A stretch of 64,000 bases of DNA, taken from contig CAWFAK010000004.1 of assembly GCA_963813715.1 (NCBI GenBank), positions 1-64,000 on the forward strand, given 5' to 3'. This DNA comes from an uncultured Planctomycetaceae bacterium. GTDB lineage: Bacteria > Planctomycetota > Planctomycetia > Planctomycetales > Planctomycetaceae. Shown one piece after another: positions 25,453-46,380 of the stretch. Below the pieces are notes generated by a model. That model did not search any database. It saw only the letters and a program-made list of their open reading frames with translations, and was not told the origin of the DNA. The stretch's first letter is position 1. Each line of letters starts with the position of its first letter. Both the position numbers and the translations under genes were made by a program.

Positions 25453-25465
25453 CGCAAAACTCCCT

Positions 25466-25931: not shown

Positions 25932-26036
25932 AAAAAACCGACGTGGCTGAACACCCTTGAGGTGTTCGACCACGTCGGTTTACTCGTCAACGGACTCCCC
26001 AGCCCGGCTGGGTTGCCCTTTATCTAGTCATCCGAC
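25932..26036 (-). ncRNA. Candidate cis-regulatory leader RNA with terminator/antiterminator, copy 1
   Basis: GTCGGATGACTAGATAAAGGGCAACCCAGCCGGGCTGGGGAGTCCGTTGACGAGTAAACCGACGTGG..CCACGTCGGTTTTTT; three copies in window. Confidence 0.75.
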
Positions 26037-26082
26037 GATCTGTTGCCGAGCCGAGCTTGTGGTTCGACTCCGCACATAGGTC

Positions 26083-26111
26083 ATTGTATCGCGCGACACG
26101 AGGAACAACAA
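26083..26111 (-). promoter_or_regulatory. Sigma70-like promoter for leader copy 1
   Basis: TTGTTG-17 bp-TACAAT. Confidence 0.55.
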
Positions 26112-26233
26112 TGGCCTTCCACTCGATTGCGCTCTGTGCTGCCTCTGTGAAGCACGGATACACGGCCTCTGATCCCGAATTGCTCGCCCACTCTGACCGC
26201 GGGAATTGTCACTCGAACGCTCGCCGATCCTGT

Positions 26234-26803
26234 TCATTGCAAGTGTTCGGCAAGGAACCACACCTGCAATTCGTTGGTGCGAATGACATCAGAGACAATG
26301 ATGTCATTTGTTCCCAGGTCACCTTTGGCCGCGGAGTCCCGCGCCATCGCCCGACTTTCCAAGAGGATGATTTCGTGCGCCTGAAGCAAGCGTGCGATTT
26401 GATTCGCGACATCTTCGCGGTCTTTGGGCGCACGCGGAATGAGAGTGGCTTGTGCGACATCCGGAGCCATGGCGATGGTGACGCCGCCGAGCGTCTGCAC
26501 CCGCTCCGCAAGCAAATCGACGAGTTTGGATTGCTCCTCAAAGTGCTTATCGAAAAGCAGATGCATGACGTAAAACGATGGCCCCGAGGCCTGCCAGTGA
26601 TGCTTCTTGTACAAGTCCCGCAGTGTGAGAGTGTCGGCCAGCAGCTGATTCAGATAGTCGATGCTGGCGGCGGCTGTCGTCGCGTCCAGGGCCAGCGGGT
26701 TCTTTCGGGCCGTGCTGAAGGCCTGGGTTTCCCCGCGGGTCGCCGGAACAATTGGCTCTGTCAGGTGGACGCCGTCGGTCCGGGTGATTGTAGAGGTCGT
26801 CAT
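26234..26803 (-). CDS. dps: DNA starvation/stationary phase protection protein Dps
   Basis: KKHHWQASGPSFYVMHLLFD, DLLAERVQTLGG, GDLGTND. Confidence 0.95.
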   Translation of the reverse strand: MTTSTITRTDGVHLTEPIVPATRGETQAFSTARKNPLALDATTAAASIDYLNQLLADTLTLRDLYKKHHWQASGPSFYVMHLLFDKHFEEQSKLVDLLAERVQTLGGVTIAMAPDVAQATLIPRAPKDREDVANQIARLLQAHEIILLESRAMARDSAAKGDLGTNDIIVSDVIRTNELQVWFLAEHLQ

Positions 26804-26869
26804 TTAAAAACTCCCAATTGAGTGACAGAAAGGGAAGGACACTTCTACTGATCCTGACCGGCTTGGCGA

Positions 26870-29299
26870 TCATGCGATCCCGAGCCGTCGGAAGACCGGC
26901 CCTTTGGCCGCGTCCACGACGAATGCGAAGACAAACGTCGCGACAAATGTGCCGGCGACGACCGATATCGGTAGAGGCGTCATCACGATCCCGCAGATCG
27001 CCAACGTCGTCGCGATCAAGATGTCGGCCACGGATGACCCGATGACCCAATAGCTCGGCCAAGAAGACCACAGGCGCCGGCGCTCGCGGATGGCATAGGT
27101 CGCCGCCTGATTGCCAAACACGATGACGATAAAGGCCAGAGTTCTCAGCGCATCCATTTCGAGCTTCAGCCCAAACTCGCCGATCGCCAAAACTGCGCTG
27201 CAAAAGCCCAGTTCGAAGATCCCCATAAAAACGCCCGCGATCGTCAGTTTGCCGATGCGCCAGGCGTTGGGCAGCGGGGACGGTCGCACGTTGTCGGTGG
27301 TCAAGGACATTCCCAGGAAGTCCCCAGTGATCATGACGATGACCATCAGCATGGGCGTCAGGATGGCGTCGCCGGTCATGATCAGACCGACGGCCAGGAA
27401 GAGCACTTGGACGACTTTCTTGTTCACGGAGTTCAGCGTGTAAGTCAGGATGCGCTGGAACGTCACTCTCCCTTCCCGGACTGCGGCAACGATGCCGTCG
27501 AGTCCAGGCTTGGTCAGCACGATCCCCGCCGCCGACTTGGCGACGTCTGTCGCAGTCGACACCGCGATTCCCATTTGCGCCTGGCGCAGTGCCGGCGCGT
27601 CGTTGGCGCCGTCGCCGCACATTCCGACGGCGTGACCCTCCTTTTGGAAGGCCTTGACCAGGCGATACTTGTCTTCCGGCAGAACGGCGGCGAACCCCGC
27701 GAAGTCTTGCGGACGCACACTGTCGACGATCGGCCCAGGTGGACAGACGCCCCCCTCAAGTCCGACCGCGCGAGCTACGATTGCCGCCGTCGCCGGCGCG
27801 TCGCCGGTCACCATCACAGTGCGCACACCCAACGTCTTTAGCTCCGTGATCAGCGCTGCCGAGTCCGTCCGAGGTGGGTCACTGAGTGCAATGAGGCCAG
27901 CTAGCCGCAGCGCGGCCGGCGGACCGATGGCGACGGCCAGGACTCTGAAACCTTGCGATTCAAACTCGCTTGCCGCCGTGGAAGCCGCTGGCGACGGTTG
28001 CGTGAGACGGACGATGACAGCGAAGGCCCCCTTCACGATGCGCAGATTGCCGCCGCTCGGATCCACGACCGTCGCCTCGGACATTTTCGTCGCCGGATCG
28101 AACGGTACGAACGCGATCCGTTTCGGCAAATCGGACGGACCGTTGTGCGTGGCGGCAGAGCGAATGGCAGCATCGACGGGATCCTGTCCACCATCCGAGC
28201 CTGCGAGGGCAGCGAACCCCAGGAGGTGAGCCTCGTCGAAGCCGGATAACGGGCGGACGGTGGTCACGGTCAGTTCATTGCGCGTCAACGTGCCCGTTTT
28301 ATCCGCGCACAGAACGTCGATGGAGGCCGCCTCGTCGACGGCGGAGAGTCGCGTCGGCAGAACGCCCAGGCGTGCCAGGGACTGTGCGCCAACCGCTGCC
28401 GCCAGAGTAAAGGTGGCCGGCAGCGCGACCGGGATTGACGCAAGAACCGCCGTGAGCACGAGGGAAATGATTTCCCCAAGCGGCATGGCGTGAAGCCAGG
28501 CGTACGCCACCAGGATGACGATGAGCGTGCCGTTGAATAAGGCCAGGTTGCGCACCACGCGCAGCACAGCCTTCTGCTGAGAACTTACGACACGCGCAGT
28601 GAGAACGAGCTCCGCAGTTCGACCAAACTTCGTGCGAGCCCCGGTCGCCGTCACCACTGCGACGGCCTCGCCGCGCCGCACCAGCGCCCCAGCATAAGTT
28701 TGGAACGCGGGGCCAGACTCGATGGGAATGGATTCGCCGGTGAGCATCGATTGATCGAGCAGAACTGATCCTTCGACCAAGCGCACGTCGGCGGGAACCA
28801 CGGCGCCCAACGACAGCTTCACGATGTCGCCAGGGACCAAATCGGCTGCGGGCAGATTCGTCCAGGCGGCGTTGCGCCGCGCCGTCGCGGTCAGCGCCAG
28901 CCGTGACCTCAGCGCGGCCAGGGTTGCCTGGGCGCGCCCCTCCTGAAAAAAACCGAGAGCCGCGTTGAAGACCAGGAGAGCCGCGATGATCGCCGCCTCG
29001 ACATACTCGCCGAGCGCAATTTGAAGCGCAATCGCAGCTTCGAGCATCCAAGGCACAGGTGCCCAGAATTTGTCGAGTGCCAGCCGAAATGGATTCAGAG
29101 TCGTGTCAGAGACCGCGTTTGGGCCGAACTGCTTCAGCCGGCGGGCGGCCTCTTCGTTTGTGAGACCTGTGTCGAGGTTGGCAGGCAGCGTCTCGCGTGT
29201 GTCGAGACCTGGCGCCGCACGGGCGATATCATCTCTGTCCCCGCTCGAACGCGGGAGCTCCGTGCCCAATTTGTCTATTGCCGTTGGCACATCGACCAA
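26870..29299 (-). CDS. P-type ATPase, P3A plasma-membrane proton-efflux type
   Basis: LTGES, IPVALP, DKTGTLT, KGA, DPPR, TGD, GDGANDAPAL. Confidence 0.9.
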   Translation of the reverse strand: MVDVPTAIDKLGTELPRSSGDRDDIARAAPGLDTRETLPANLDTGLTNEEAARRLKQFGPNAVSDTTLNPFRLALDKFWAPVPWMLEAAIALQIALGEYVEAAIIAALLVFNAALGFFQEGRAQATLAALRSRLALTATARRNAAWTNLPAADLVPGDIVKLSLGAVVPADVRLVEGSVLLDQSMLTGESIPIESGPAFQTYAGALVRRGEAVAVVTATGARTKFGRTAELVLTARVVSSQQKAVLRVVRNLALFNGTLIVILVAYAWLHAMPLGEIISLVLTAVLASIPVALPATFTLAAAVGAQSLARLGVLPTRLSAVDEAASIDVLCADKTGTLTRNELTVTTVRPLSGFDEAHLLGFAALAGSDGGQDPVDAAIRSAATHNGPSDLPKRIAFVPFDPATKMSEATVVDPSGGNLRIVKGAFAVIVRLTQPSPAASTAASEFESQGFRVLAVAIGPPAALRLAGLIALSDPPRTDSAALITELKTLGVRTVMVTGDAPATAAIVARAVGLEGGVCPPGPIVDSVRPQDFAGFAAVLPEDKYRLVKAFQKEGHAVGMCGDGANDAPALRQAQMGIAVSTATDVAKSAAGIVLTKPGLDGIVAAVREGRVTFQRILTYTLNSVNKKVVQVLFLAVGLIMTGDAILTPMLMVIVMITGDFLGMSLTTDNVRPSPLPNAWRIGKLTIAGVFMGIFELGFCSAVLAIGEFGLKLEMDALRTLAFIVIVFGNQAATYAIRERRRLWSSWPSYWVIGSSVADILIATTLAICGIVMTPLPISVVAGTFVATFVFAFVVDAAKGPVFRRLGIA

Positions 29300-29377
29300 T
29301 CCCTCAACCCCGTAGCTGGACTTGCTTCGCCGGCTCGCTTTGTCTCGTAGGCCCGTCGCTGGAATGAGCTTGTCGAG

Positions 29378-29866
29378 TTAAGTCGGGACCACCAAATAGA
29401 CCGTTTGCCCACCGTAGATATAGGGCTGGTAATACACGCCGTCGCACACATCGTAGGTAATGCCATTCGCTAAGACCGTTTGGCAGCCGTCCGGCAGGGT
29501 GTCGTACAGGTAATACTGCGCACCGCCGAGCATGATGGAGCGGTACCCGGGACGAAAGTGCCGGGCATAGTCGCTGTGGTAGGGATTGCGAGCGGCGCCC
29601 CCTAACTCCCGGCCCCGCTGGACGGCCGGGCCTACAGGGTCACGACCTGCACGTTCGCCAAAGTGGATCGACCCGACGCGAGCAACCGCTTGTCCGCCCC
29701 CGACACGACCGCCGCCGACATGAGCTCCGCCGCCTCCGCCTCGAGCGCCGCCGCCTCCACCACCTCCCCCGCGGCCACCTTGATACGCGCCGATCGGAGC
29801 CGTCGCCCACACCAACGCGGCCAGACCCAGAGTCAAAGTACCGGTCCAAAAAATGATTCGCCTCAT
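29378..29866 (-). CDS. Secreted Gly-rich protein with Tyr-rich C-terminal domain
   Basis: AAGGAG RBS, signal peptide, poly-Gly, LPDGC..YDVCDGVYYQP. Confidence 0.7.
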   Translation of the reverse strand: MRRIIFWTGTLTLGLAALVWATAPIGAYQGGRGGGGGGGGARGGGGGAHVGGGRVGGGQAVARVGSIHFGERAGRDPVGPAVQRGRELGGAARNPYHSDYARHFRPGYRSIMLGGAQYYLYDTLPDGCQTVLANGITYDVCDGVYYQPYIYGGQTVYLVVPT

Positions 29867-30048
29867 GATCGTTGCTCCTTTATCACTGCAAGAAGAATCC
29901 CAAGTCGAGCCGTCTGTGCAAGGAGTCCGGGGCTTGTCACGCCACAACAGGCTCCTCAGAACGCGACTCGATTTAATCCAGCGCGGAATGCTGCCGTTTC
30001 CCCCGAACGTGAACACATTCACGATGTCGGAATCAGCTCATTACCCCT

Positions 30049-30837
30049 TTACCCGCTCGCCGCATCCTTCGCGGGTTTGGGCTCGGCATGCCGGTTCAGG
30101 AAATCGACCTTCCGCAAACCCTCCGGCGGCTGGAACTGAAACATCTCATCGCTCAGCTTGGGGTTCACGTCCCAGCGGTGGATGAGAGCGGTGAATTGCG
30201 GCTGGTCGGCCTGCTGCTTGAACGTGATCACGAGCTTGCGCGGCAGCGGTTCGTCGCCCGCGTCGATCCAGATTTGCCAGTCCACAGCCTTCTGCCGGAA
30301 CGCGAGGTGATGGCACTTCACCTTGCCCACGTAATGCAGGCCGACATACTCGCCGCTCTGCACGTTTTCCGTGAACTGCTTGTAGGGGTCGGCAAACAGA
30401 AAATCGGCCAGGGGCTGGTCCGTCTCGAAACGCTCGTGCAGATCGTCGAGCATCCCATCGATGGTGCCGGGCACCTTCTCGACAGCGTAGGTCTTTTGAG
30501 CGCGGTCGAAGACGGTGACCGTCTTGCCGTCGTAATAGAATCGGGAGTTGGCCGTGTCCCCCTCGCTCTCGCCGAAGATCTTGTCGGGCCGACTCACGGA
30601 CATGTGGCGCTGGTTGCTGAGCTGCAATTTCTGACCGTCGTCCTGCGTCTCGTCGAAGAATTCCTCGACCTGGAACGAATACGTGTGGAGGCCGGCCAGG
30701 TAGTTCGACATGGCCTTCAGATACTGTTCCGCCTTGGGCTCGATCTTGGGGGCCTCTTGTTGAGGATCGCCTGCGAAGGCGACTCCCCAAAAAATGGCCG
30801 CGACCGCCAATCCGACTGTCGCCATTCGCTTTTTCAT
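30049..30837 (-). CDS. DUF2092 periplasmic protein (LolA-like)
   Basis: LKAMSNYL..RPDK..YDGKT..CHHLAFRQ..VDWQIWI..PLPRK. Confidence 0.85.
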   Translation of the reverse strand: MKKRMATVGLAVAAIFWGVAFAGDPQQEAPKIEPKAEQYLKAMSNYLAGLHTYSFQVEEFFDETQDDGQKLQLSNQRHMSVSRPDKIFGESEGDTANSRFYYDGKTVTVFDRAQKTYAVEKVPGTIDGMLDDLHERFETDQPLADFLFADPYKQFTENVQSGEYVGLHYVGKVKCHHLAFRQKAVDWQIWIDAGDEPLPRKLVITFKQQADQPQFTALIHRWDVNPKLSDEMFQFQPPEGLRKVDFLNRHAEPKPAKDAASG

Positions 30838-31064
30838 GATCAGATTCTCCGTCATTTGCCCGAAACACAGCCGCCGCACCATCGGGACACGCACCGACGC
30901 GCAGAACTGTCAGTTACTTGCCGCTGTCATTGACCCGCGATCGGCGCGCGGCCCGATTTTCTGGTGCGAGGGCCGGCGGGAATCGCGCCGAGGCAGACAA
31001 GAATCAAGCCCACAACGAGGGTCGTCGGACGCACTACTGGTCGTCGTTTGGAAAAAACGCGAAC

Positions 31065-31958
31065 CTAAAAACGATTTCCGCCCCGGAACTGCGACTGGGA
31101 AACCACTTTCGCGCGCCGGAAGATTCGGCGGGACGATGACTTTTCCGGACGGTCACACGCTTTCGCGCCCGCGTCTGGGACTCGTGGAGTCGATGCGAGA
31201 GGAAGGCGGACGACAAACTCACTTCCGCGACCCAGTCCAGGGCTGTTCGCACTTACGCTGCCGCCGTGCATCTCCACCAACTTCCGCACCAGCGCCAGAC
31301 CGATGCCCAGACCCCCCTCCGAATGATCTCGCGTGCGCTCCACCTGCCAGAAGGACTCGAAGACATGTGGGAGCATTTCCCGATCGATGCCAATCCCGGT
31401 ATCGCGAACTCGTAGAACGACATCGCTCGCTCGGGCCTCGGCCGTCAGCCAGATGCGGCCGCCTGGCTCCGTATACTTGGCCGCATTGTTCAGGAGATTC
31501 TTCAGCACCTGTTCCAGCCGGCCGGAATCAGCGTTGACGGATACGGGCCCCGGCGGGAGGGTGACTTCGAACTGGTGGCCGCGCTCGTCAAAGGACGAGC
31601 GCACGGTTTCGACCGCGCGGGCGACACACGCCGCCAGATCCACGGGCTCCTGACGCAAATGGATTTTGCCGTGCTCGATGCGGGAGACTTCCATCATGCC
31701 GTCGATCAGGCGGCCCATGCATTGTGTTTGCCGCTCCATCAAGCCCCGGACGCTGTCCCGTGTGGCGGCGTCTTCCCCATCGAAGGCAAGCACCTGAAGC
31801 GCACTACAGATCGCGGCCAGAGGGGAGCGCAACTCATGCCCCAACTCGGCGAGGAACTCGTTCGTGTGCCGATCGGCGTCGCGGAGTCGACGGTCGGGAG
31901 GGGCGTTGCCGATCGTACGCTGGAAGTCGCTCCCTGCCCGGATCAGTTGTTGAGCCAT
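31065..31958 (-). CDS. Histidine kinase (HisKA + HATPase) lacking sensor and receiver domains
   Basis: FLAELGHELRSPL, NLLNNAAKYT, DTGIGI, GGLGIGL. Confidence 0.85.
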   Translation of the reverse strand: MAQQLIRAGSDFQRTIGNAPPDRRLRDADRHTNEFLAELGHELRSPLAAICSALQVLAFDGEDAATRDSVRGLMERQTQCMGRLIDGMMEVSRIEHGKIHLRQEPVDLAACVARAVETVRSSFDERGHQFEVTLPPGPVSVNADSGRLEQVLKNLLNNAAKYTEPGGRIWLTAEARASDVVLRVRDTGIGIDREMLPHVFESFWQVERTRDHSEGGLGIGLALVRKLVEMHGGSVSANSPGLGRGSEFVVRLPLASTPRVPDAGAKACDRPEKSSSRRIFRRAKVVSQSQFRGGNRF

Positions 31959-32028
31959 AGTCGAAGTGGGCCTTTCCAGCGATTCGGCGGCCGTTCCGGT
32001 CGCGAATTGCCGTCCTGCACCACGGAAT

Positions 32029-32133
32029 AAAAAAACCGACGTGGCTGAGCCCCCTGAGGGACTCGACCACGTCGGTTTACTCGTCAACGGACTCCCCAGC
32101 CCGGCTGGGTCGCCCTTTTTCTAGTCATCCGAC
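32029..32133 (-). ncRNA. Candidate cis-regulatory leader RNA, copy 2
   Basis: Near-identical to copy 1, with a different but still paired inner terminator stem. Confidence 0.75.
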
Positions 32134-32181
32134 AATGCCGAGAGCGAATTGCAAACGCACGCTTACGCTCCGACATCGTCC

Positions 32182-32210
32182 ATACTAACGCGGATCGCCC
32201 GAAAGCACAA
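32182..32210 (-). promoter_or_regulatory. Sigma70-like promoter for leader copy 2
   Basis: TTGTGC-17 bp-TAGTAT. Confidence 0.5.
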
Positions 32211-32338
32211 TGAGCCTGTGGTCCTTCGCTGGCGATTGGTATCATCATGCAGACAAGTTTGGCAAAAACGCCGAACGCGGCTGCTCTTTCTGAAACGGTG
32301 TGTTGATCCGTGATCGGCTCGCTCAAGTGGCTCGGATC

Positions 32339-32719
32339 ATGAAAACCCAGGGCGAAATCGAAGCCGAGATTTGCGAAGGGATCTCGCGCTTTGAACAGGA
32401 CTTCATGGGTCGGGGTCCCAAGGACATCCGCACGCATCTGATCGGTGACCTGCTGATCGTCCGTCTTCAAGGCGTGTTGACCGCAGCCGAACAACAACTG
32501 GTCAAAGTGCTCCCGGCCGAGAAGGGGAGGGATCTGCTGAAGCAGGTGCGGACCCAACTGGTCGAAACGGCGCGGCCGCTGCTGGAAGCCATGGTGCAGG
32601 AGACGACGGGTGTCAAGGTGCTGGCACTGCACCACGACATCAGCACGGTGACGGGCGAAGAAGTCGTGCTCTTCACGCTCTCCGAGTCGCCGCTATTCCG
32701 GCAAGCCAAGAAGAAATAG
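32339..32719 (+). CDS. DUF2294 (MpsC-like) protein
   Basis: MKTQGEIEAEI..MGRGPKDIR..RLQGVLTAAEQQL..LHHDISTVTGEEV. Confidence 0.9.
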   Translation: MKTQGEIEAEICEGISRFEQDFMGRGPKDIRTHLIGDLLIVRLQGVLTAAEQQLVKVLPAEKGRDLLKQVRTQLVETARPLLEAMVQETTGVKVLALHHDISTVTGEEVVLFTLSESPLFRQAKKK

Positions 32720-32730
32720 CCAGCGCTTTT

Positions 32731-32878
32731 CTCCCTCGCCCGTCCGCTTCGGATTGACTTCGGCGCGTTCGCTTCGGGCCCGACTTCGGCGAGCTCAGTC
32801 GAGCCGAGCCTCAGGGTCGAAGACAGTCGAGCGGGAGAGGGCCGACCTGCGACGAGCTCAGTCGGGTCGGGTGAGAGC
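32731..32878. repeat. Nested REP/MITE-like palindromic repeats
   Basis: GACTTCGGCGAGCTCAGTCGAG units inserted into other hairpin units. Confidence 0.55.
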
Positions 32879-32879
32879 G

Positions 32880-33692
32880 AAATTTCTCCGGGCATTCTTC
32901 GGTGAAACAACGTGTCCCGTCCCGATCCCGTCCCAATGTCCCTCGACGACTCGCGACGGCGGCGGGTCAACTACTTTGGTGGGTCATGTTCCTGGTGAAA
33001 CAAAGTGTCCCGACCCACCGGCCAATGCCTTTCCACCTGCCGACCCCCGCGCGTCCCGCCTCGGAAGTCCTCGCTGGGCCAGAAACTCCGGGCTTTTCTC
33101 GGTAAAACAACTTGTCCCGTCCCGTGTCCCGCCCGCGCCGGCCTTTCGGGGACCTAGGACCCCGCGCCCACGCCCGACCTCCATCCGGCCCGCGCGGTGG
33201 GTCCAGTTTCGCATCCCCCCCTTATATTAAATGAGAGGGACCCGTCCCGCCGGGTCCAGTTTTTATGAGTCCCGCCGGGACAACCTGTCCCACCGGAAAC
33301 TTTCTTTCCGCGTATCCCGTCCCATCGAGTCCCGCGCTTTCGTGTCCCGTCCCACGGTAGGACCGGGTCACCAATTCGGTGGGTCACGTCATGAGTAGAA
33401 AATTGTGACCCAACCCCCCCGTGAAAGTACTTAGCCCCCGATTGGCGAAAGTGTCCGGACCGGAGGTCGACCGGCAAACGAAAGGCACCGGCTTACTGCG
33501 TGCGCGGCTCCTAAAAGGCTGACGGGGATCTTTTTCTCCCATCCGTATAAAAAAAGGATCCCCACCCCGCCGGGGATCCTCTTTCGTTTCTCCGCGGGCG
33601 CCTCCACCGCGCACAAAACCGCTCGCGCCGAGATCCGCTCTCTCCATTCAGCCATAAAAACGAGCTTCGTCCAAGATCAGTTTGCTGGAATT
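32880..33692. repeat. Non-coding GTCCC-iteron and hairpin-rich element, copy A
   Basis: Many TGTCCC/GTCCCG repeats; blocks collinear with 49375-50792. Confidence 0.7.
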
Positions 33693-34095
33693 CCTCGCCG
33701 AGCGCGACCTCGATCTTGGCCTTGAACCTGCGACAGCCTGTTCGGCTGACCCTGAATTTTGGACCGAGCCGAAGGCGATCACGAATGCCCGGTTTGCCCA
33801 AGATCGGTTCTCAGTCGAAGCGACCGGCGCCGGCAACAGGCGCGGGTGCCGGCCGCGTCGATCGATGTGACCGACGGGCGCCCCGGGAGACAACTCAAGT
33901 AGTCGATCAGGTCGCTATTTCACTCGCTTTTTCCAAATCCTCGGTGCGTTTCTTGCATGATCTGGAACATCTTGAGCGCTTTCTCTCGTCGAATTACCTG
34001 CAGTATGATTGCCGTACCCGGTTTATTAAATGCGTCTATCGGCGTGCCGAATCTTGGTGCACGCCGCGATGCGGTCAGTTCACATGCGAGGTGGC

Positions 34096-35578: not shown

Positions 35579-35908
35579 CGGCTTCAATCAGATGACGAGT
35601 GCGCGAGCCGCCGAACGCCGGGCCGCAATTTCGAGTCGCACATTGGTGCCCGCAAATTCAATTCAGAGGCGAACGCGGGGCCACAATCGACGGACGAAGA
35701 GACCTGCTCTCGCGCCTCGACGTTCAATCAACCGCGGGGGATCGAGCGGCACTTGAAGCACGAACGAATGGCCACAGGTGCACTTGATTGCTTTGCCGAC
35801 CAGTTCCTCCGCAGCCTTTAAAGGCTGGGAGTATTGCGGACAGGACGTGGTGACCATGGCTCGGCGCTCCGGCTGTCAGCAGGGGCGACATCGCGCGTCC
35901 CCAGCTGC

Positions 35909-37256: not shown

Positions 37257-40200
37257 GGCAGGCTCTCGACAGGACTCAATGAACTTTCCGCAGGTTCTCC
37301 CTGGTCGAAGAGATCGAGCAGCTTCTGGTATTCAAAGCTTTCCGCCAGGCGGCGCAGCTTCTGGGCGAGTCGGGGATTGCAGTCTTCAACGCTGCGGATT
37401 TGTTCCAGCAGATCGTCCAGATCGGCCCGGATGATGGCTTCACGCATCTGGTGAATGAAGTCGTGCGGCAACTCCGCCAGGGACTCGGGAGTGATCTCGA
37501 CCGTTTCCTCGGGGTCCGGTGCGGCAGGCGGCTCGGCGTAAACGAACTCTACGCCCAATTGGGCGTGAATCTTCTGGAAGAGGTCGATTTCCCGGAATGG
37601 CTTGCTGATGAAATCGTCGGCGCCGATCTTCAGCAGCTCCTGTCGGTTCTCGTCCATCGCACTGGCCGTCACGGCAATGATCTTGATCTCCCCGCCGCCG
37701 GCCATGGCCCGGATCTGCCGAATCGCCTCATGGCCGTCCATCACCGGCATGCGAAAATCCATCAAAATCAGATGGGGTCGCCATTTCTCAAACTCCCGGA
37801 CGGCTTCGGCTCCATTGGTCGCCAGCCCGATCTCGAAACCGACGGGACCGAGAAGCTGGGCCAGCAGCTGGCGGTTATCCTCGACGTCGTCGGCAATCAG
37901 CACCCGGCAGTTTGCCTGCCCGGGCTGCAGCCTCAGGACCTGTCGGGGCGTCTCCTTCACTTGAACTGCCTGGGCCTCTCCCTCCTTCAATGGCAGGTGA
38001 ACCACGAAAACGCTGCCTTTGCCAACCTGGCTTTTCACCGTGATGTCGCCAGCCATGAGACGAACAAACTCGCGGCTGATGGCCAGGCCGAGCCCCGTTC
38101 CGGTCGCCGCTTGTTGCCCCGACTTGGTTTGCTCGAAATGCCGGAACAACTTCTCTTGATCTTCGGGCGAAATGCCCGAGCCCGTGTCCTCAATTTCGAC
38201 CACGAGAATGGGTCGCGTTGTGTCATTGCGGTCCGCGCGCACGCGCAACGCGATCCCCCCTTGCTCGGTAAACTTGACTGCGTTGCCCAGCACGTTAATG
38301 AAGACCTGCCGCAGCTTGTTGATATCGGTCACGATGTATTGGGGCACGCTGCCGACCATCTCGACCGAGAACGATAGCTTTTTCTCATTCGTGCGGAGGC
38401 GGAACATCATCTCCACGTCTTTGAGCAGCGCGAACAGGTCGAACGTGGTGAGATTCAGGGTCGTGCGGCCGGCCTCGATCTTGGACATTTCCAGGATGTC
38501 ATTGATCAGGGCCAGGAGATGCTCGCCGCTGCGATTGATGGTTCCCAGGTACTGGTTTTGTCGCGGCGTGAGATCCTGGTCGCGGAGCATCAACTGGGAG
38601 AACCCGAGGATGGCGTTCATGGGCGTGCGGATTTCGTGCGACATGTTCGCCAAGAAGACGCTCTTGGCGCGGTTGGCTTGCTGCAACGACTGCTCGTAGC
38701 GTTTGCGTTCGGTGACATCGCGGGCCGCGGCGAACACCCCCTGAAGCTTTCGGTCGCGATCGTGGAAGGTGGATGCGTTATAGGACACCACGGTTTCCTT
38801 GCCGTCCCTGGCGCGCGGTGAGTTCGTAGTCGGTGACCTTGCCTTCGCCCAGCACCAGCTTGATGCCCGCTTCGGCCCGATCGGAGTCGGTGAAGTAACC
38901 CTTGAACGGCGCGCCGATGAGCTCGTCGCGCGTGCATCCGGTGAGCGCCTCCATCTGCTTGTTCACGTCGGTGATGATGCCGCGCGGATCGGTGGTGATC
39001 AGGGCATCAATGTTCGATTCAATCAGCGAGCGGGTGTAGAACTGTTGATCGCGCACGCGCTGATCCAGCAGCATTCGCTCGGCTTCCACCTGCTTTCGTT
39101 CGGTATTGTCGGTGCCAATCAAGAGATAACCGATAATTCCGCCTTCCGCGTCACGCAGCGCCGTCACCGACACGATGGCCGGAAAGCGGCTGCCATCCTT
39201 GCGGATGTAGGTCAATTCGTAGATGTCCTCGATCCCGCGCGAGGCCTTGAAAACCAACGCCTCGAAGCCCGGAGTGATCGTGGTCCCTAGCTGGGCGCTC
39301 AAGGCTTTGGCGCGCGTAATCACTTCCTGCGGATCGGAAATGTCGGCCGGCGTAATCTTGTTCATCACGTCCGCGGCCGTGTACCCCAACATGGCCTCGG
39401 CGCCGACGTTGAAGATTTGGATGACGCCCTTCTCGTCGGTGGCGATGCTGGAGAAGTTGGGGCTGTTGAAGATCGCGTTCTGCAACGCGCCGGCTTTGAG
39501 CAGCGCTTCTTCCGCCCGCTTGCGCGGTCACGTCCTCCATCGCCAGAACGAGCAGTTCCCCGTGATGCCCCGCCTGAAGCTTGCGGGCGTTGAGCAGCAT
39601 CACCCGGCGTCCGATGACCGGGAACGTGTGCTCGAGCTCGAAGTCGTCGAAGACGGAGCTTTTGGGCACAACATCCTCGAGCAGCGTCCGCAGATCGGGA
39701 ATGTCCCATTGGCCGTTGCCCAATTCATAGATCAGGCGGTCCTCAGTCTCCGCGGACGAAACGTGAAAGGCCTGATAGAAGGCGCGATTGGCGGACCGGA
39801 CGCGCAAGGTGGCATCGAGGATCAGCAGCGGCTCGCGTACCGTGTCAACAATATTCTGGGCGTAGGTTTCGATCGCCTTCAGATCGGCCTCGGAGCGCCG
39901 CCGCTCCGTTACGTCCTCCATCGCCAGCACGAGCAGTTCCCCGTGATGGCCCGCTTGAAGCTTGCGGGCGTTGAGCAGCATCACCCGGCGTCCGATGACC
40001 GGGAACGTGTGCTCGAGTTCGAAGTCGTCGAAGACCGAACTCTTGGGGACAATGTCCTCGAGCAGCGTCCGCAAGTCGGGGATGTCCCACTGGCCGTTGC
40101 CCAGCTCGTAGATCAGACGGCCCTCGGTCTCCTTGGGCGAGACGTGGAAGGCCTGGTAGAAGGCGCGATTGGCGGACTGAACGCGCAAGGTGGTGTCGAG

Positions 40201-40281
40201 GATCAACAGCGGCTCGCGCACCGTGTCGACAATGTTCTGGGCGTAGGTTTGGATATCCTCGACCAGTGGTTCTTGTGTCAT
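37253..40281 (-). CDS. Multi-PAS hybrid histidine kinase (PAS x4, HisKA, HATPase, REC); frameshifts near 39525 and 38810
   Basis: FLANMSHEIRTPMN, NAVKFT, GTGLGL, LMDFRMP; two nearly identical N-terminal PAS domains. Confidence 0.88.
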
Positions 40282-40341
40282 GGGCGTTCCTTTATGTGCT
40301 TCGAGGTTCTCACGGGCGGCCGCGCGCCCCAAGTGCACGCG

Positions 40342-40375
40342 CCGACGAAGGCAGTCCGTCACGAACCTGTCGACG
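40342..40375. repeat. 34-bp direct repeat (partner at 35909-35942)
   Basis: Direct comparison. Confidence 0.8.
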
Positions 40376-40625
40376 GTCTGCCCGCCGGCAAGGGAAACAC
40401 TTGCGTTGCCGCCGAACCGTCTTCAGAGGTCTCCACGACCGAGAACCTGATCCCGGCGTCCGTGAACACTCGCGGCATCTTGGTGATCGCGTCCATGGCA
40501 TCCTCCAGTGTCGAAAGAACATCGGCGTGGGAGCGCTGCGCGATTTCGCGAAGGCCCTCTTTACCGGGCCGCGTGATCCATCTCACAACGCCCGAACTTG
40601 ATACTGCTTTTACAAGGTAAGGCAT
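40359..40625 (-). CDS. Small hypothetical protein, paralog of 49844 and 50054
   Basis: AGGAG RBS; MPYLVK..WI..G.R..A..T..DA..AI.K.P..F. Confidence 0.7.
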   Translation of the reverse strand: MPYLVKAVSSSGVVRWITRPGKEGLREIAQRSHADVLSTLEDAMDAITKMPRVFTDAGIRFSVVETSEDGSAATQVFPLPAGRPSTGS

Positions 40626-40729
40626 GAGCTCAGCACTCCTCGCAGAACTGCGACGGGCATTGACCGCGAATGGCAGGGGTGTCTCGCCATTGAGCCAGTC
40701 GCCCGTAAATCCAATCAAAGACACGAGAG

Positions 40730-42286
40730 TTAGGGCGCCGGTCGCCCAACCGTTTTGAACAGTTCGCGCAGCTTCGTCACGTCCACGGGCTTGACGTAGT
40801 AATGGTTAAATCCGGTTTCCTGTTGACGCTCGCGGTCGGCTTCGCTCGGCGTATAGCCGGTCAAGGCACACATCATCACGTCCTTGAATCCCGGCAGCTG
40901 TCGCAAACGCTTGGCGACCTGATAACCGTCTATTCCCGGAAGGCCAATATCCAACAGCACGACGTCGGGCCGACAAGCCGCGGCCAGCTCCAGGGCTGCC
41001 GGGCCAGAGCGAGCCACTTGGACTTCGTGCCCGTACAGACGCAGCAACAGGCTCAGGCTATCCGCCGTATCGACGTTATCTTCCACCACCAACACCCGCA
41101 GCGACCGTTCCGGGTGGTCCAGTTCGAGCACGGTTCTCGTTTCCGGCACCGGCGCACGTGTCAGCACCGGCAACTTGATCGTAAATTCGCATCCCTTTCC
41201 CAATCCGGCACTGGACGCCTGCAACCTGCCTTCGTGCATCTCGACCAGGTTGCGAGCGAGAGCCAGGCCGATCCCCAATCCGCCGTACGAGCGACCGAGC
41301 GAGCCGTCGACCTGTGTAAACAGCTCGAAGACGTGAGGCAGCAGTTCCGGGGTGATCCCGACTCCGTTATCCCGCACTTGGATCACGGCTTCGTTACCTT
41401 CCTGACTGACGGCCATGCGGATCAGTCCGCCCGCTTCGGTGTACTTCGCCGCATTGTTGAGCAGGTTGACCACGACCTGCTCAATTCGAGTGGGGTCCGC
41501 CTCCACCCAGATCGGCGCGGTGGGGAGAGAGACCGAGAAATCGTGTTTCCGCGCGTCCATGAAGGGCCGGACCGACTCGGCGGCGTCGTTGACGACGCCC
41601 CGCAGTTCGACTTGCTCCTTGGTCAGCCGCAATTTCCCTTTGGTGATCCGGCCGATGTCCAAAAGGTCGTCGACCAGTCGCACCATCACGCCCACTTGCC
41701 GGTCGATGATGTTTCCGGCTTGCGCGATGATCGGGTCGTTCGTCTTCATCTGTCGCAGGATGCTCAAAGCATTGCGAATCGGCGAGAGGGGACTGCGGAG
41801 TTCATGGGAGAGCAGCGCCATAAACTCTTCTTTGCTCCGGTTGGCTTCAGCCAGTCCGTCGGCCCGCTTCCGTTGAGCCAGCGCCGCTTCGCTTTCGGTG
41901 AGGTCGTGCATCACTCGAGCGAATGACCGGGCCTGCTTGTCCTCATTGAGCAAAGGCGTCACGGTCGCGTGACACCAAAACCGTGTTCCATCTTTGCGGA
42001 GCTGCCAGCAGTTGTTGTGAGCCCGCCCCTCAGCCAGCGCCGTCTGGAGTTCATGCTCGGGTGCGCCGCTGCGAATTTCTTCGGGGGCAAAGAAACAGGA
42101 AAAGTGCTGCCCCACGATTTCGTTGGACAGATAGCCGAAGAGTTGTTCCGCCCCTGGGTTCCAACAAATGACATGTCCTCCCAGGTCGACCAGGAAGACG
42201 GCGTATTCCTTTGCGTCGGTCGCCAGCAGGTCGAAGCGCTCTCCGATTTCTTGCGACGAGAGATGGCCTGAGCTTTCTGAAGACAT
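40730..42286 (-). CDS. PAS hybrid histidine kinase with REC
   Basis: WNPGAE..RKDGTRFW, LSHELRSPL, GGLGIGL, LLDIGLPG. Confidence 0.92.
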   Translation of the reverse strand: MSSESSGHLSSQEIGERFDLLATDAKEYAVFLVDLGGHVICWNPGAEQLFGYLSNEIVGQHFSCFFAPEEIRSGAPEHELQTALAEGRAHNNCWQLRKDGTRFWCHATVTPLLNEDKQARSFARVMHDLTESEAALAQRKRADGLAEANRSKEEFMALLSHELRSPLSPIRNALSILRQMKTNDPIIAQAGNIIDRQVGVMVRLVDDLLDIGRITKGKLRLTKEQVELRGVVNDAAESVRPFMDARKHDFSVSLPTAPIWVEADPTRIEQVVVNLLNNAAKYTEAGGLIRMAVSQEGNEAVIQVRDNGVGITPELLPHVFELFTQVDGSLGRSYGGLGIGLALARNLVEMHEGRLQASSAGLGKGCEFTIKLPVLTRAPVPETRTVLELDHPERSLRVLVVEDNVDTADSLSLLLRLYGHEVQVARSGPAALELAAACRPDVVLLDIGLPGIDGYQVAKRLRQLPGFKDVMMCALTGYTPSEADRERQQETGFNHYYVKPVDVTKLRELFKTVGRPAP

Positions 42287-42368
42287 TCGGCCCGCCTTTC
42301 GAGACTCGCCCTGTCGGATCTTCGGACAAATGACGTGTGGCTTTCGACCCTTGCGGAACGAATGGGGA

Positions 42369-43379
42369 TTAGTTCTCGATTGGCAAGGCCAGCCTCATGT
42401 GTTTTCTCTCGCGCGGCTCGGGACAATCTCGCAGGTAGTCGAGAAGGTCAGAGAGTTGCGCCGTGGCCAAGGCCAGGCAAGTGTCCGCGCCGCCGTAGTA
42501 GATGCGAATCGTGCCGTTGGGACCCAAAATCCAACCGCACGGAAAGACGACACCGTTGACGTCTCCGTGACGTTCGTAGGCCGTTTCCGGCGCGAAGATC
42601 CACTCGTCGCTGCGGCGAATGACGCGACGAGGGTCCTCCAAATCGAGCAGAGCCAACCCCAGTCGATAGAGGCAGCCTCCGGCCGTGACGCGGACGCCGT
42701 GATACATCAGCAGCCAGCCCTCCGGGGTTTCGAGCGGAGGGGGGCTCAAGCCGATCTTGTTCGCATCCCACCAGGCTCCGCGGCGTGCCGGCAACAGGAT
42801 GTGATGATCGCCCCAGTGAGTCAGGTCGGGTGAGAAAGACAGCCAAATATGCGCCCCCGAGCTCCCCGCGGAAACCGGTCGATGGATCATCGCGTAGCGA
42901 TTGCCAAAGCGAACGGGAAACACGGCCGCGTCCTTGTCCTCGGGGGGCATGACGGGGCCGAGCCGGGTAAACGAGTTGAAGTCTTTGGTGGTCATTAGTG
43001 AGACGAGCGGTCCACTGGGCGAATAAGCCGTGTAGGCGATGACCCATTCGCCGCGCTCGGCGACCCACGTCAACCGCGGGTCTTCGACGCCCCACTCTTC
43101 TTCCGGGAAGTTCGCCGGTTCGGGGGCGAAGCTGGGCTTGGAATCGATGTGCCAGTTCGACACGCCGTTGTTACTGCGGGCCACAGTCAGATGCGAATGG
43201 CCGCGCCGATCCTCCACGCGGACAAGCAACACCGTTTCGTCACCGACCTGGCACGCGCCGGCATTAAACACGGCATGGGCCGGATAGGGCCAATCGCGAG
43301 CCGTCAGGATCGGATTGGACGGATTGCGCTTCAGAAGTTCTGTATAAAGACCAGATGGCTTCGATTCTCGCAGCATCAC
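42369..43379 (-). CDS. GH130-type glycosidase/mannoside phosphorylase
   Basis: NPIL, VFNAGA, GVEDPR, EDKDA, HRP, VVFPCG, YYGGADT. Confidence 0.9.
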   Translation of the reverse strand: MMLRESKPSGLYTELLKRNPSNPILTARDWPYPAHAVFNAGACQVGDETVLLVRVEDRRGHSHLTVARSNNGVSNWHIDSKPSFAPEPANFPEEEWGVEDPRLTWVAERGEWVIAYTAYSPSGPLVSLMTTKDFNSFTRLGPVMPPEDKDAAVFPVRFGNRYAMIHRPVSAGSSGAHIWLSFSPDLTHWGDHHILLPARRGAWWDANKIGLSPPPLETPEGWLLMYHGVRVTAGGCLYRLGLALLDLEDPRRVIRRSDEWIFAPETAYERHGDVNGVVFPCGWILGPNGTIRIYYGGADTCLALATAQLSDLLDYLRDCPEPRERKHMRLALPIEN

Positions 43380-43418
43380 GGCTTTCTTATTGAGTCAGTT
43401 GATCGCGTTCGCGCGATT

Positions 43419-44525
43419 TCAGACGACGTCGCAGTGTTCTTGCGCAACGTGCGCTGAGGTTTCCGCCCCGCATATTTCCGCACTGCGCAATTCGGTCCAT
43501 AAATACGCCAAAGTCGATTCGGCTCCCTGGTTCCGATTCAGGCCCGAGGCCTGTAATCCGTCGCAGCAAGCGCCGTCCGACGCGTCGACGAGTGGTTGCC
43601 TCAAGCTGTTTTCGCCGTAGAACCAGGCGCGCGCCCTGCGGAAGGTCGAGCGGTACCTCTCATCGCCCAGCAGGTCTAAGCCGGCGAGTGCCGCGTCGGC
43701 CATTGTGGAGGCTTCCACCGGCTGCTGATCGTAGAGCGCCTTGTCTTCTCCGTGCGGGTACCAGTCGTCATTTCCAACGGGCCAGAAAATTCCGTCGCTC
43801 GTCGTCTCCGCTTCGAGAAATGCAAACGCGGATGCGGCGACATCGAGAAACCCGTTCCCCTGCCAAAGCTGGGCGGCGACGAACAGGGCGTGTGGCAACA
43901 CCGCATTGGCATAAGTCATCCGCGATTCGAACCACGGCCAGTCACTCCGCATCGAGCGGTTGTAACACTCGACCAGTCGCAGAGCCGCCGACCGCGCGAC
44001 GCTTTCGATCGCGCTAATCTCCTTTGCCCCCTGTCCCCACAGATGGCCCCAAGCCAGGATCACGTAGGCCTGAGCGCGGAAGCTGCGCAGCTCGGCTAGA
44101 GCCGGGAGAACCGCTTCGATCAACTCCCGCGCCAAGAGCCGGTAGCCCTCCGGCAGAGAGCTGCCGGCGACCTCGGCGAGCGCGATGACCGCCTGACCCT
44201 GGCAATCGCCGGTGCCTTCCGCATCGAGCCAATCTCGCTGGTAACTCAGGAAGTTGTGGAATCCGCGAACCGGGCAGCGGGCGTGTTCCAGAAAACTCAG
44301 GTAGCGCGTCACGCGACCGAGCATTTGCTCGTTCGGATCGCGGGCCCAGAGTCGAGTGCACAGCCGCAGGGCGCGGGCGTTGTCGTCCGTCGTGTAACCA
44401 CTTTCGCGTCGCGGAATGCTGTAAATCGCATGTTGAATCAACCCGGTTGAGTCGGTCATCCGGTCCAAGTGACACAACGGGATGCGATGAGAGATCCCTT
44501 GCGGGATGACATGGCCGTCGGACAT
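43419..44525 (-). CDS. (alpha/alpha)6-type glycosyltransferase-associated protein
   Basis: HLDRMTDSTGLIQHA, GYTTDDNARAL, DQQPVEA, NRNQGAESTLAYL. Confidence 0.85.
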   Translation of the reverse strand: MSDGHVIPQGISHRIPLCHLDRMTDSTGLIQHAIYSIPRRESGYTTDDNARALRLCTRLWARDPNEQMLGRVTRYLSFLEHARCPVRGFHNFLSYQRDWLDAEGTGDCQGQAVIALAEVAGSSLPEGYRLLARELIEAVLPALAELRSFRAQAYVILAWGHLWGQGAKEISAIESVARSAALRLVECYNRSMRSDWPWFESRMTYANAVLPHALFVAAQLWQGNGFLDVAASAFAFLEAETTSDGIFWPVGNDDWYPHGEDKALYDQQPVEASTMADAALAGLDLLGDERYRSTFRRARAWFYGENSLRQPLVDASDGACCDGLQASGLNRNQGAESTLAYLWTELRSAEICGAETSAHVAQEHCDVV

Positions 44526-45775
44526 CAGAGACCTCCCCCCAAAAGTTTAGCGCATCGCGCCTTGCCGCTCGATTTCGTCAGGGCGCTGCGAACAGCACGC
44601 CGCGGGGCTGCATCGTTTGCGGAGGCAGCGTTTGCAAAGGCAGCGCTTCTAAAACAGTCCAAATACTGACGGCCCACGTTCGGCCAAAACATGAGCTTCG
44701 CGTAGCTGTGGGCGCGGTGTCCGGTCTCCGCCCGAAACTCGGGGTTGTCCAGAAATCGCAAAGTCGCGTCGGCCAGAGCATCGCTTTGTGCGAAGGGCAC
44801 GATCAGGCCGCGACCCTCGGCCAGGACCTCTTCGGCGTACAGGTAGGGCGTGCTCACGACCGCTCTTCCCGCCGCCAGGGCATAGGCCAAAGTGCCGCTT
44901 GAAATCTGATCTTTTCCGGGGTAGGGCGTCACGTAAACGTCGCAGGCTTGCAAGTGTTCCATGAGTTCGTCGAGCGCAAGGAATTTGTTCACGAAGTGCA
45001 CATGCGCGCCAACACCGAGCGCGTCCGCCCGCGCGGCCAGGCTCTCCCGATAGACTTCTCCCTCGCGTCGCTTCACTAACGGATGTGTGACTCCGACCAC
45101 CAGATATTGGGCTTGCGGATGGGCCTGCACGATGCGGGGCATGGCCTCGATCATGTATTCAAGGCCTTTCCCGCGGTTAATCAGGCCAAAGGTACAGATC
45201 ACCTGACGATTGGCGAGTCCCAGCCGGGCCTTCTGTGTGTCGTCTCGCGCGGACGCGACCACCGGGACGCCATGCGGAATGATTTGCACCTTTGCTCCGG
45301 CGACGCCGTAAACCTGATCGAGGAGCCTGGCAGCCACTTTCGTCATCACGATCAGGCTTTGGCTCTTGGCCGCCAACTCCCGAATGATGAGCCAAGGAGC
45401 CGGAGCCGGCTTGGTCATCAGCGTGTGGAACGTCGTGACAATCGGCTTACGGCACGCACGCACAAAGTCCAGCACGTCGCCGCCCCAATCACCGGGGTAG
45501 AGGCCGAACTCGTGCTGCAGACTCACCACATCGCACGGACCGTCGTTCGCCACGTCTGCCGCAAGGGTGTAGGCTTCGTCGCAACTGTTATCGATCACGT
45601 GGACGACGCGCGGATCGTCATAACTGAGCGACGGGGTCTTCAGGATCGCAGCCGACGAGGAAATTGGCTCGCCTGCCGCAAGATCCACCGCATCGGCGGT
45701 GTCCTTGGTGAAGGTCGCCAGCCCACACTCTTCAGGCGGGTAGGTCGACACAAACAGCGGTCGAACGAGATCCAC
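44525..45775 (-). CDS. GT4 glycosyltransferase
   Basis: [37 protein letters not shown]. Confidence 0.9.
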
Positions 45776-45802
45776 AAGGCGCTCCGTGAAAAAGTGTGCG
45801 TT

Positions 45803-46165
45803 CTAGACCATCGACCGCTGATGAACGCCATGATTGCGGTTTCGAGAGTCACGATTGCGCGTCCGGATGAATTGCGTGCCGAAGTTGTACTCGGCCCCGA
45901 TGATGAGGCTCTTGGAGGAGCAGGAGACACAATGACGTTTGGCGGTCGGCGCCGTGTTCCAACTTCCGCAGGCTCCGCAGAAATAAGCCACGAGCGCGCT
46001 CGCGCCGCACGTGCATCGCCCGGGACGAAGCCGACTGGTGGAGACGATTCTCTTGCAATGACGGCAAGACCAACGATAGAGAGGCAGCCGCAGCCAGGCG
46101 TAGGTCCCTCCCGCTAGAGCTAAAACGCAGCCACCGGCCACGACCATCCACGTCTGAGGATTCAT
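45803..46165 (-). CDS. Membrane-anchored Cys-rich (zinc ribbon-like) protein
   Basis: AAGGAG RBS, TM, CRHC/CTC/CGAC/CVSC. Confidence 0.65.
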   Translation of the reverse strand: MNPQTWMVVAGGCVLALAGGTYAWLRLPLYRWSCRHCKRIVSTSRLRPGRCTCGASALVAYFCGACGSWNTAPTAKRHCVSCSSKSLIIGAEYNFGTQFIRTRNRDSRNRNHGVHQRSMV

Positions 46166-46274
46166 TCCAACCGACTCCTTCTTCCGTCACATTTGCAGGA
46201 TCCGGCGATAACTGCCCAAGGCACTCGTTGCCGCAAACGAACGCGAACTGGCTCGCCCACGCGGGCACGGCAAC

Positions 46275-46380
46275 AAAAAAAGCCGACGCGGCAGAACACG
46301 TGAGAGTGTTCTGCCGCGTCGGCTTACTCAGCAACGAGCCCCCCGAATCGGCCGGGTTGCCCCTTCTTTAGTCATCCGAC
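46275..46380 (-). ncRNA. Candidate cis-regulatory leader RNA, copy 3 (diverged)
   Basis: GTCGGATGACTAAAGAAGGGGCAACCCGGCCGATTCGGGGGGCTCGTTGCTGAGTAAGCCGACGCGG..CCGCGTCGGCTTTTTTT; compensatory changes. Confidence 0.75.

Follow-up and report, generated by a model that had tools for sequence, protein, structure and literature searches.

Transcriptional ON riboswitches that act through a terminator and an antiterminator include the adenine (pbuE), guanidine-I, fluoride, Na+ (DUF1646) and Li+ (nhaA-I) classes. In the ribonucleic antiterminator (RAT) systems of BglG, SacY and LicT, an imperfect hairpin overlaps the 5' arm of a terminator, its stabilization gives read-through, and the element precedes operons of sugar phosphotransferase systems. 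General stress responses based on sigma factors are represented by SigB in Bacillus and by EcfG-NepR-PhyR in Alphaproteobacteria. The present analysis concerns a stretch of 64,000 nt from an uncultured Planctomycetaceae bacterium (GenBank assembly GCA_963813715.1, contig CAWFAK010000004.1, positions 1 to 64,000; hereafter the window), which carries three copies (A, B and C) of a structured 5' leader RNA. This RNA is very probably a cis-acting terminator/antiterminator leader. The chances are judged to be about even that it constitutes a previously undescribed ON-type class, widespread in Planctomycetota, with a small molecule or ion as the more likely effector.

The leader shares features with each of these systems. 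As in the ON riboswitches, its closing helix shares the 3' strand with the 5' arm of the terminator and the predicted default is termination; it also lies upstream of co-oriented genes, and tandem copies occur. Unlike the ON riboswitches listed above, it is a single rod lacking junctions and pseudoknots, and it precedes a broad set of stress genes rather than the genes of one pathway. With RAT it has in common an imperfect, internally looped hairpin overlapping the 5' arm of the terminator, whereas the RAT hairpin is about half as long and unrelated in sequence, and the RNA-binding domain of the RAT-binding proteins (CAT_RBD, PF03123) gave no match in the genome to which the window belongs (82.6% complete), a control search being positive in 4 of 14 reference genomes. 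The kind of regulon recalls the SigB and EcfG responses (CsbD, YflT, Dps, BON, YeaQ/YmgE-type, DUF1328, DUF3309, DUF2934, Host_attach, KaiC and kinases). In contrast to those responses, the shared element here is an RNA leader behind housekeeping-type promoter boxes, with no dedicated promoter motif.

The three copies lie on the minus strand at 26036-25932 (A), 32133-32029 (B) and 46380-46275 (C), and both the sequence and its alignment bear out the coordinates and strand given for them in an earlier sequence-only reading. The pattern CGGAHGAC-N38-62-AGTARRCCGRC matches the window exactly three times, and 100 dinucleotide shuffles gave no match. Column identity among the copies is 75% over 190 nt, with most of the identity held by a core of about 105 nt and with diverging flanks. 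Each copy consists of a 63-nt hairpin and a long G+C-rich hairpin with a U run ending at 25932, 32029 and 46275, respectively. The full leaders have folding energies of -59.5 to -61.9 kcal/mol (z -5.6 to -7.1). A covariance model (CM) built from the three copies detected one more in the same genome, on a different contig (G000:C7:223784-223854); this is the fourth copy. The sensor hairpin of copy A scores 99.0 bits with the CM designated R1 and 84.1 bits with that designated R2. Feature coordinates are collected in the table below.

For the isolated 67-nt aptamer of all three copies, the minimum-energy fold is the proposed structure (-29 to -30 kcal/mol), and it contains the pairings named in the sequence-only reading (GUCGG with CCGAC, ACU with AGU, and GGGC with GUCC or GCUC), which are thus real. 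From the base upwards, the rod comprises P1, (Y)GUCGG/CCGAC(G); a 3x3 loop, A-N-G/A-A-G; P1b, ACU/AGU; a further 3x3 loop; P2a; an A-G mismatch; P2; a 2x2 purine loop; and P3. Because these helices are joined by symmetric purine-rich loops, the RNA is best described as a single rod. The structure was evaluated statistically on 120 matches from many genomes, of which 117 are distinct. In the distinct copies, 89.8% of the cells assigned to helices are paired, compared with 81.9% in shuffles, and none of 500 shuffles reached the observed value. Compensatory changes are present at all four pairs of P2, all six of P3 and two of the three of P2a (U-R-A/U-U-R), the last helix being 89% paired. Sliding the partners by 1-3 columns lowers pairing to 26-43%, and a smaller set of copies agrees. 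The leader thus contains a conserved structured domain backed by covariation, as riboswitches in general require. Near-invariant positions are those of P1 (CGG/CCG) and P1b, the loop A-N-G/A-A-G, a G-U-U and the purines of the 2x2 loop, while the P3 loop is variable (3-5 nt) and now and then carries an inserted hairpin. An extra pair considered between alignment columns 18 and 94 was rejected as unsupported (43.6% paired). In most copies, the -10 box and the rod are separated by an additional, variable hairpin, P0 (for example loci L019 and L025, and window 26075-26037), in which a GGGAGG arm often pairs with CCUCCC; the GGGAGG on the P3 3' side is, in principle, a further possible partner for the pyrimidine arm of P0.

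The overlap between this hairpin and the terminator, also proposed in the sequence-only reading, is conserved. Among the distinct copies having enough downstream sequence, 103 of 113 can pair the P1 3' region with the 9 nt preceding the T run at 8 or more of the 9 positions, and in the remaining 10 a simple T-run finder mostly stopped too early. A simple consensus scanner did not call the long terminator of copy A. The expression platform and the closing helix of the aptamer are mutually exclusive, an arrangement of the riboswitch type. In the window copies, the terminator fold is favoured over the best fold in which P1 is enforced by 6.3-11.3 kcal/mol (11.3 for copy A). When P1 is closed, an upper hairpin of 12-14 bp can still form, yet it is separated from the U run by 5-6 unpaired nucleotides. 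The greater stability of the terminator fold, together with this gap, suggests that the default state should be termination, so that read-through would need a factor that holds P1 closed, which is the behaviour of an ON-type switch. Of the ON switch originally proposed, the conserved overlap and the preference for the terminator fold by 6-11 kcal/mol therefore stand, while the ON logic itself is what we infer from the energy ranking and the overlap.

In the proposed mechanism, a sigma-70-like promoter would start a transcript of about 150 nt, in which a variable hairpin is followed by the conserved 63-nt rod-like hairpin, and the 5' arm of a long intrinsic terminator has the P1 3' strand as its base. 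Without effector the terminator would win and transcription would halt before the gene (OFF). With effector, P1 would be kept closed, the last pairs beside the U run would be blocked, and the polymerase would enter the gene (ON). The effector would more probably be a small molecule or ion signalling general stress or growth arrest than a protein.

The position of the leader relative to promoters and genes was examined in the window and in the homologues. The -10-like boxes TACAAT, TAGTAT and TACACT, 40-48 nt upstream of copies A, B and C, can be read in the sequence as first described, and boxes of the form TTGnnn-N17-TAnnnT occur 40-65 nt upstream of most homologues. A same-strand open reading frame (ORF) with Pfam support lies shortly downstream of 31 of 43 copies in a first set and 23 of 56 in a second, for which only the two longest ORFs per copy were submitted to Pfam (54 of 99 together). 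As an antisense control, ORFs of at least 80 aa overlapping the first 450 nt downstream of 81 copies gave no Pfam match at E<=1e-4 (0/108). Many copies form divergent pairs separated by less than 400 nt, such as G135:C196 2281-2351(-)/2644-2716(+), G120:C175 28475(-)/28749(+) and those of loci L075 and L071, and such copies cannot be the 3' ends of upstream genes. Tandem copies precede a single gene at L009 (1303, 1501), G112:C2 (216298, 216418), G051:C24 (5649, 5769) and G222:C124. The leader is thus located, like a riboswitch, in the 5' leaders of co-oriented genes. The targets first suggested were csrA, a kinase and a glycan/signalling operon. These genes do lie behind copies A, B and C, with the correction that copy A leads an mpsC-csrA pair, in which mpsC (DUF2294 family) comes first and csrA second.

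The same observations bear on the idea that the element is a hairpin-carrying dispersed repeat or mobile element without any regulatory function. It is multicopy, and an IS110-type transposase gene is situated about 0.7 kb from the fourth copy in the genome (locus L003). Against this origin, only the 63-nt core and the base of the terminator are conserved, not the flanks; compensatory changes in the helices extend across families; the copies keep a fixed place and direction with respect to genes; and there is no general association with transposases. The homologues sit 5' of co-oriented genes rather than behaving as a mobile repeat, and this explanation is regarded as very improbable.

A multicopy family of trans-acting small RNAs, each with promoter, hairpin and terminator, was considered as well; closeness to genes would then be incidental, or the RNA would act both in cis and in trans. 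Every copy is self-contained, with a promoter-like box and a strong terminator, and a genome may hold up to 28 matches, both strands counted. However, the orientation is non-random (family-bearing ORFs are found in the sense direction at 54 of 99 copies and in none of the 108 antisense cases), start codons in the window follow about 45-110 nt after the U run, and the conserved nucleotides lie within helices and internal loops, leaving no exposed seed. RNA libraries bear on this alternative too. Parts of window positions 25200-26300 occur in 18 RNA-labelled soil or rhizosphere runs among the 20 listed (16 studies), and contigs from four runs were compared with window 24800-26900. Single contigs span mpsC, the terminator and the hairpin (X2 record 14, 25637-26125, with no mismatches; X3 record 20), and contigs extend upstream of the predicted start as well as through the terminator, the continuation into mpsC counting against a free-standing small RNA. 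The summed depth in bin 25936-26006 was 534, 126 and 12.6 in runs X1, X2 and X3, compared with 27.7, 7.6 and 5.5 in the downstream bin 25865-25935, while X6 had no excess over the conserved 70 nt (5.8 vs 7.5). The excess consists of many additional, partly fitting contigs drawn by the conserved 70 nt; it could be cited in favour of a small RNA, with the qualification that the count sums the copies of other organisms and is not a measure of expression. The libraries show that many related leader copies are present in them. Since such contigs cannot reveal transcript starts, ends or levels, and DNA carry-over is possible, no regulatory conclusion is drawn from them. Overall, a trans-acting small RNA family is considered improbable.

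Homologues were sought with the CMs across Planctomycetota, as the sequence-only reading had advised, and were found in the bacterium's own family, in other families of its class and in further lineages. Within the family, 40 of 151 sampled genomes were positive with model R1 and 51 of 151 in a second draw with model R2, many copies per genome being frequent and the latter model giving the maximum number of matches per genome cited above. In a sample of the class, 15 of 151 genomes were positive at E<=1e-6, representing 6 of 17 families. A phylum sample under strict filters gave 6 positive genomes of 151, three of them outside the family, a figure that understates the spread relative to the pattern scan. 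That scan, which used the exact pattern on one genome per species, gave at least 80 loci with flanks. Among the loci listed, 47 of the 51 titled Planctomycetota score with model R2, compared with 1 of 29 from other phyla, and the titles include Gemmataceae, Planctomycetaceae, Isosphaerales, Thermoguttaceae, Phycisphaerae, Tepidisphaeraceae, Ca. Kuenenia and Schlesneria. The sole scoring locus from another phylum among those listed (L086, titled as an Aggregatilineales metagenome-assembled genome; 1495-1583, 35.6 bits) has a long P3 insertion and its own terminator, and could reflect horizontal transfer or a binning error.

Comparison with described RNA families gave no assignment. No Rfam 15 model (4227 models) matched the 64-kb window at gathering score. 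At E<=10, copy A and eight diverse loci gave only hairpin matches to microRNA and small RNA models, far below their cut-offs, besides one to SAM-IV (RF00634). The latter was rejected, being a full-length match on copy A only (13.8 bits, E 5.6; cut-off 38), absent at the eight other loci and at odds with the downstream stress genes. The nhaA-I (Li+), DUF1646 (Na+) and c-di-GMP-I models, singled out for checking beforehand, did not match copy A or the eight loci even at E<=10; the strong hit to a characterized Rfam family that would have counted against the original proposal was thus not obtained. Rhodopirellula-1, a cis-regulatory candidate reported in Planctomycetes that has no Rfam accession (Weinberg et al. 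2010, PMC2864571), is defined in the published alignment (supplement S5) by AAC...variable hairpin...CGUU and by GAU-GAAC / GUUAUC arms. Both motifs are cis-regulatory candidates in Planctomycetes, but Rhodopirellula-1 lacks the UCGGANGACU / AGUAAGCCGAC core of the leader, and no terminator overlap is visible in its alignment. Identity of the two was rejected, since the window copies have neither the AAC/CGUU ends nor the GAU-GAAC / GUUAUC arms; by the published alignment, then, Rhodopirellula-1, which had also been named for checking, is a different motif.

An RNA family already described, yet lying outside Rfam 15 and searchable papers, is a slim chance. In so well sequenced a phylum, such an abundant motif might already have attracted attention, and some published motifs, such as Rhodopirellula-1, never entered Rfam. 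On the other side stand the lack of any Rfam 15 match, the differences from Rhodopirellula-1 and the silence of the literature: a full-text search, with subscription-only papers and preprint supplements outside its scope, found no description of the leader RNA, and in the main text of the 224-motif paper the words Planctomycet, Rhodopirellula, Pirellula and Gemmata are absent. The leader is therefore rated as a new class that works by a known principle, belonging to no Rfam 15 family and distinct from Rhodopirellula-1.

The nature of the effector is the point on which the alternatives come closest. Given a cis-acting terminator/antiterminator leader, a small molecule or ion is somewhat probable as the effector, and a protein is possible at lower probability. 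In the latter case the RNA and the ON logic would be the same, with a protein antiterminator clamping the rod hairpin, as LicT or SacY does on RAT; this protein might be encoded within the regulon, candidates being a member of the MpsC/DUF2294 subfamily, or CsrA acting on the conserved CGGAUG. Taken as a whole, this alternative is thought rather unlikely. It is favoured by the architecture of the RNA, a rod hairpin that has symmetric internal loops and overlaps the 5' arm of the terminator, and in which P1, P1b and the loop nucleotides are invariant. It is also favoured by the genes: 16 of 99 copies have mpsC as their first downstream gene, csrA occurs in four operons behind the leader, and a comparison of coordinates places the leader within 500 nt upstream of about two thirds of the MpsC orthologues listed. 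Among 151 genomes, motif and MpsC co-occur strongly (both in 31, motif alone in 9, MpsC alone in 3 and neither in 108), with the caveat that related genomes are not independent. The location of the leader directly upstream of most MpsC orthologues is compatible with MpsC being a core target of regulation as well as with its being an autoregulated factor. By contrast, 9 of the 40 motif-positive genomes, several of them 92-100% complete, have no MpsC orthologue for the query used, which speaks weakly against MpsC being required.

Structural comparison of MpsC was uninformative, so that its fold neither supports nor opposes RNA binding: the sequence had no match in the PDB at E<=1; the AlphaFold model (predicted local distance difference test score 79), which consists of two alpha-beta-beta repeats, had no Foldseek match at E<=0.001; and in VIA-align the best Z was 6.9, with RbfA/KH-like and LicT-PRD rows near Z 5, within the noise band of the tool. 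A likeness between the N-termini of MpsC and of the kinase behind copy B, noticed by eye, was dropped after BLASTP gave no significant alignment (E>4).

Leaders bound by CsrA have two or more GGA motifs, typically in hairpin loops. The present leader has one invariant GGA (CGGANGAC), located in P1 and its internal loop, and a second (in GGGAGG) in part of the copies only. The GGAUG in the hairpin presumably resembles the core of CsrA sites, which would count towards CsrA as effector; however, CsrA binds single-stranded GGA, so that binding there should open P1 rather than close it. Leaders regulated by ANTAR proteins have two tandem short hairpins with conserved hexaloops. The genome encodes one ANTAR protein, but the RNA is unlike an ANTAR target, and an ANTAR-type leader was rejected because the consensus folds as a single long hairpin, capped by a variable loop of 3-5 nt or an insertion. 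The absence of CAT_RBD matches also argues against a protein effector.

A small ligand rather than MpsC is preferred, on the basis of the motif-positive genomes in which the query found no MpsC orthologue, the great diversity of the regulated genes and the lack of any match to a BglG-type antiterminator in the bacterium's own genome; between a small molecule or ion and a protein antiterminator, the former has a slight advantage. Several observations weigh against a new ON-type class with such an effector. P1 and P1b, whose pairing is backed by conservation and energy alone, never covary. One type of expression platform is present in every copy seen, though many riboswitch classes use several. 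A rod that has neither junction nor pseudoknot and has a variable P3 loop is a shape typical also of protein-binding RNAs such as RAT, and the strong co-occurrence of mpsC and the motif would also fit an autoregulated RNA-binding factor. In addition, the promoter boxes were read by eye, and a consensus scanner passed no promoter at copy A (8/12 matches).

Table. Leader elements and associated genes in the window.
Feature	Coordinates	Strand	Description
Leader A, sensor hairpin	25974..26036	-	P1 GUCGG/CCGAC, P1b ACU/AGU, P2 GGGC/GUCC, P3 CCCAGC/GCUGGG
Leader A, intrinsic terminator	25932..25980	-	5' arm AAACCGACGUGG reuses the P1 3' strand; U run 25937-25932
Leader A, promoter-like boxes	26083..26111	-	TTGTTG (26111-26106), 17-nt spacer, TACAAT (26088-26083); by eye
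mpsC (DUF2294, PF10057)	25466..25885	-	First gene behind leader A; Pfam E 1e-21, 77.5 bits
csrA	25225..25452	-	Second gene behind leader A; PF02599, E 9e-15; NCBIfam CsrA models match below their cut-offs
Leader B, sensor hairpin	32071..32133	-	P3 CCCAGC/GCUGGG; from sequence, folding and CM
Leader B, intrinsic terminator	32029..32077	-	Overlaps the P1 3' strand; free-energy difference 6.7 kcal/mol
Leader B, promoter-like boxes	32182..32210	-	TTGTGC (32210-32205), 17-nt spacer, TAGTAT (32187-32182); by eye
Histidine kinase	31065..31958	-	Behind leader B; HisKA and HATPase_c, without recognized sensor domain
DUF2092 gene	30894-30049	-	After the leader B kinase; Pfam
Leader C, sensor hairpin	46318..46380	-	P2 GGGC/GCUC, P3 CCCGG/UCGGG
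Leader C, intrinsic terminator	46275..46324	-	Overlaps the P1 3' strand; free-energy difference 6.3 kcal/mol
Leader C, -10-like box	46421..46426	-	TACACT; by eye
Leader C operon	42369..46165	-	Four ORFs
Cys-rich membrane ORF	46165-45803	-	Leader C operon; 120 aa
GT4 glycosyltransferase	45775-44525	-	Leader C operon
ORF without family	44525-43419	-	Leader C operon; 368 aa
GH130 phosphorylase-like gene	43379-42369	-	Leader C operon
PAS-kinase-receiver gene	42286-40730	-	After the leader C operon

The genes behind the leaders of other genomes extend the picture obtained from the window. Apart from mpsC, which is the commonest downstream gene and encodes a small protein, the recurring families include BON, Dps/ferritin, CsbD, YflT, DUF1328, DUF3309, YeaQ/YmgE-type (Transgly_assoc), DUF2934 and Host_attach; PLDc_N, Hsp20-like proteins, KaiC, histidine kinases and an extracytoplasmic function (ECF) sigma factor with its anti-sigma factor; and heavy-metal P-type ATPases, a CusB-like gene, Csp1-like Cys-rich proteins, Ice_binding/PEP-CTERM proteins and the GT4 operon. 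This set resembles the general stress regulons of other phyla, and the genes behind the leader look like a general-stress regulon. The fourth copy of the genome (L003, G000:C7:222284-225354) precedes a gene for pterin-4a-carbinolamine dehydratase, followed by an IS110-family transposase gene.

Further observations concern the surroundings of the leaders. Around leader A, window 23719-29299 (minus strand) forms a stress island with an H+-ATPase-like gene, Dps, mpsC, csrA and a second ferritin/Dps-like gene; the P-type ATPase, of the plasma-membrane H+-efflux type, scores 598.9 bits against a cut-off of 615.5. Divergent from leader B lies a second, more typical MpsC/DUF2294 paralogue (window 32300-32719, plus strand), which is 24% identical to the leader-controlled MpsC and, when searched with the model, has no leader before it. 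The GT4 operon recurs behind the leader in other genera (L006, L025, L033 and L064); in the window (42369-45775, minus strand) its GH130 gene is beta-1,2-mannobiose-phosphorylase-like, and the product of the operon may be a glycoside or a compatible solute. Among the PAS/kinase genes downstream of the leader C operon, an ORF at 39151-40362 (minus strand) has two nearly identical repeats of about 120 aa in its translation (IETYAQNIVDTVREPLLILD ... LVLAMEDVT). In R. baltica, a general stress cluster containing Ferritin/Dps (RB4432-4438) is reported to be switched on by heat, cold and salt (PMC2754498); it is a natural place to look for the leader.

More broadly, a dedicated riboswitch class, instead of an alternative sigma factor or other regulatory protein, may govern a general stress or dormancy programme in Planctomycetota, in which dozens of housekeeping-type promoters per genome would be kept off by the leader until one intracellular stress signal releases them together. 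This proposal is tentative, and more doubtful than probable. In such a programme the signal would bind the 63-nt rod and block the terminator; as a signal not yet known to have a riboswitch, an alarmone, an ion or a metabolite of osmotic or energy status might serve, and the core outputs would include MpsC/DUF2294 and CsrA. Should the leader prove to be a true riboswitch, it would be a new orphan class with well over 100 distinct representatives across a poorly understood phylum that includes the anammox bacteria, and its ligand could reveal what planctomycetes sense as "stress". Even with a protein effector, it would define a large regulon that links MpsC/DUF2294 with CsrA, Dps, BON, KaiC, small stress proteins and metal-efflux genes, and that is switched by attenuation instead of promoter choice. 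The leader would, in addition, offer a compact natural ON switch for genetic tools in Planctomycetota.

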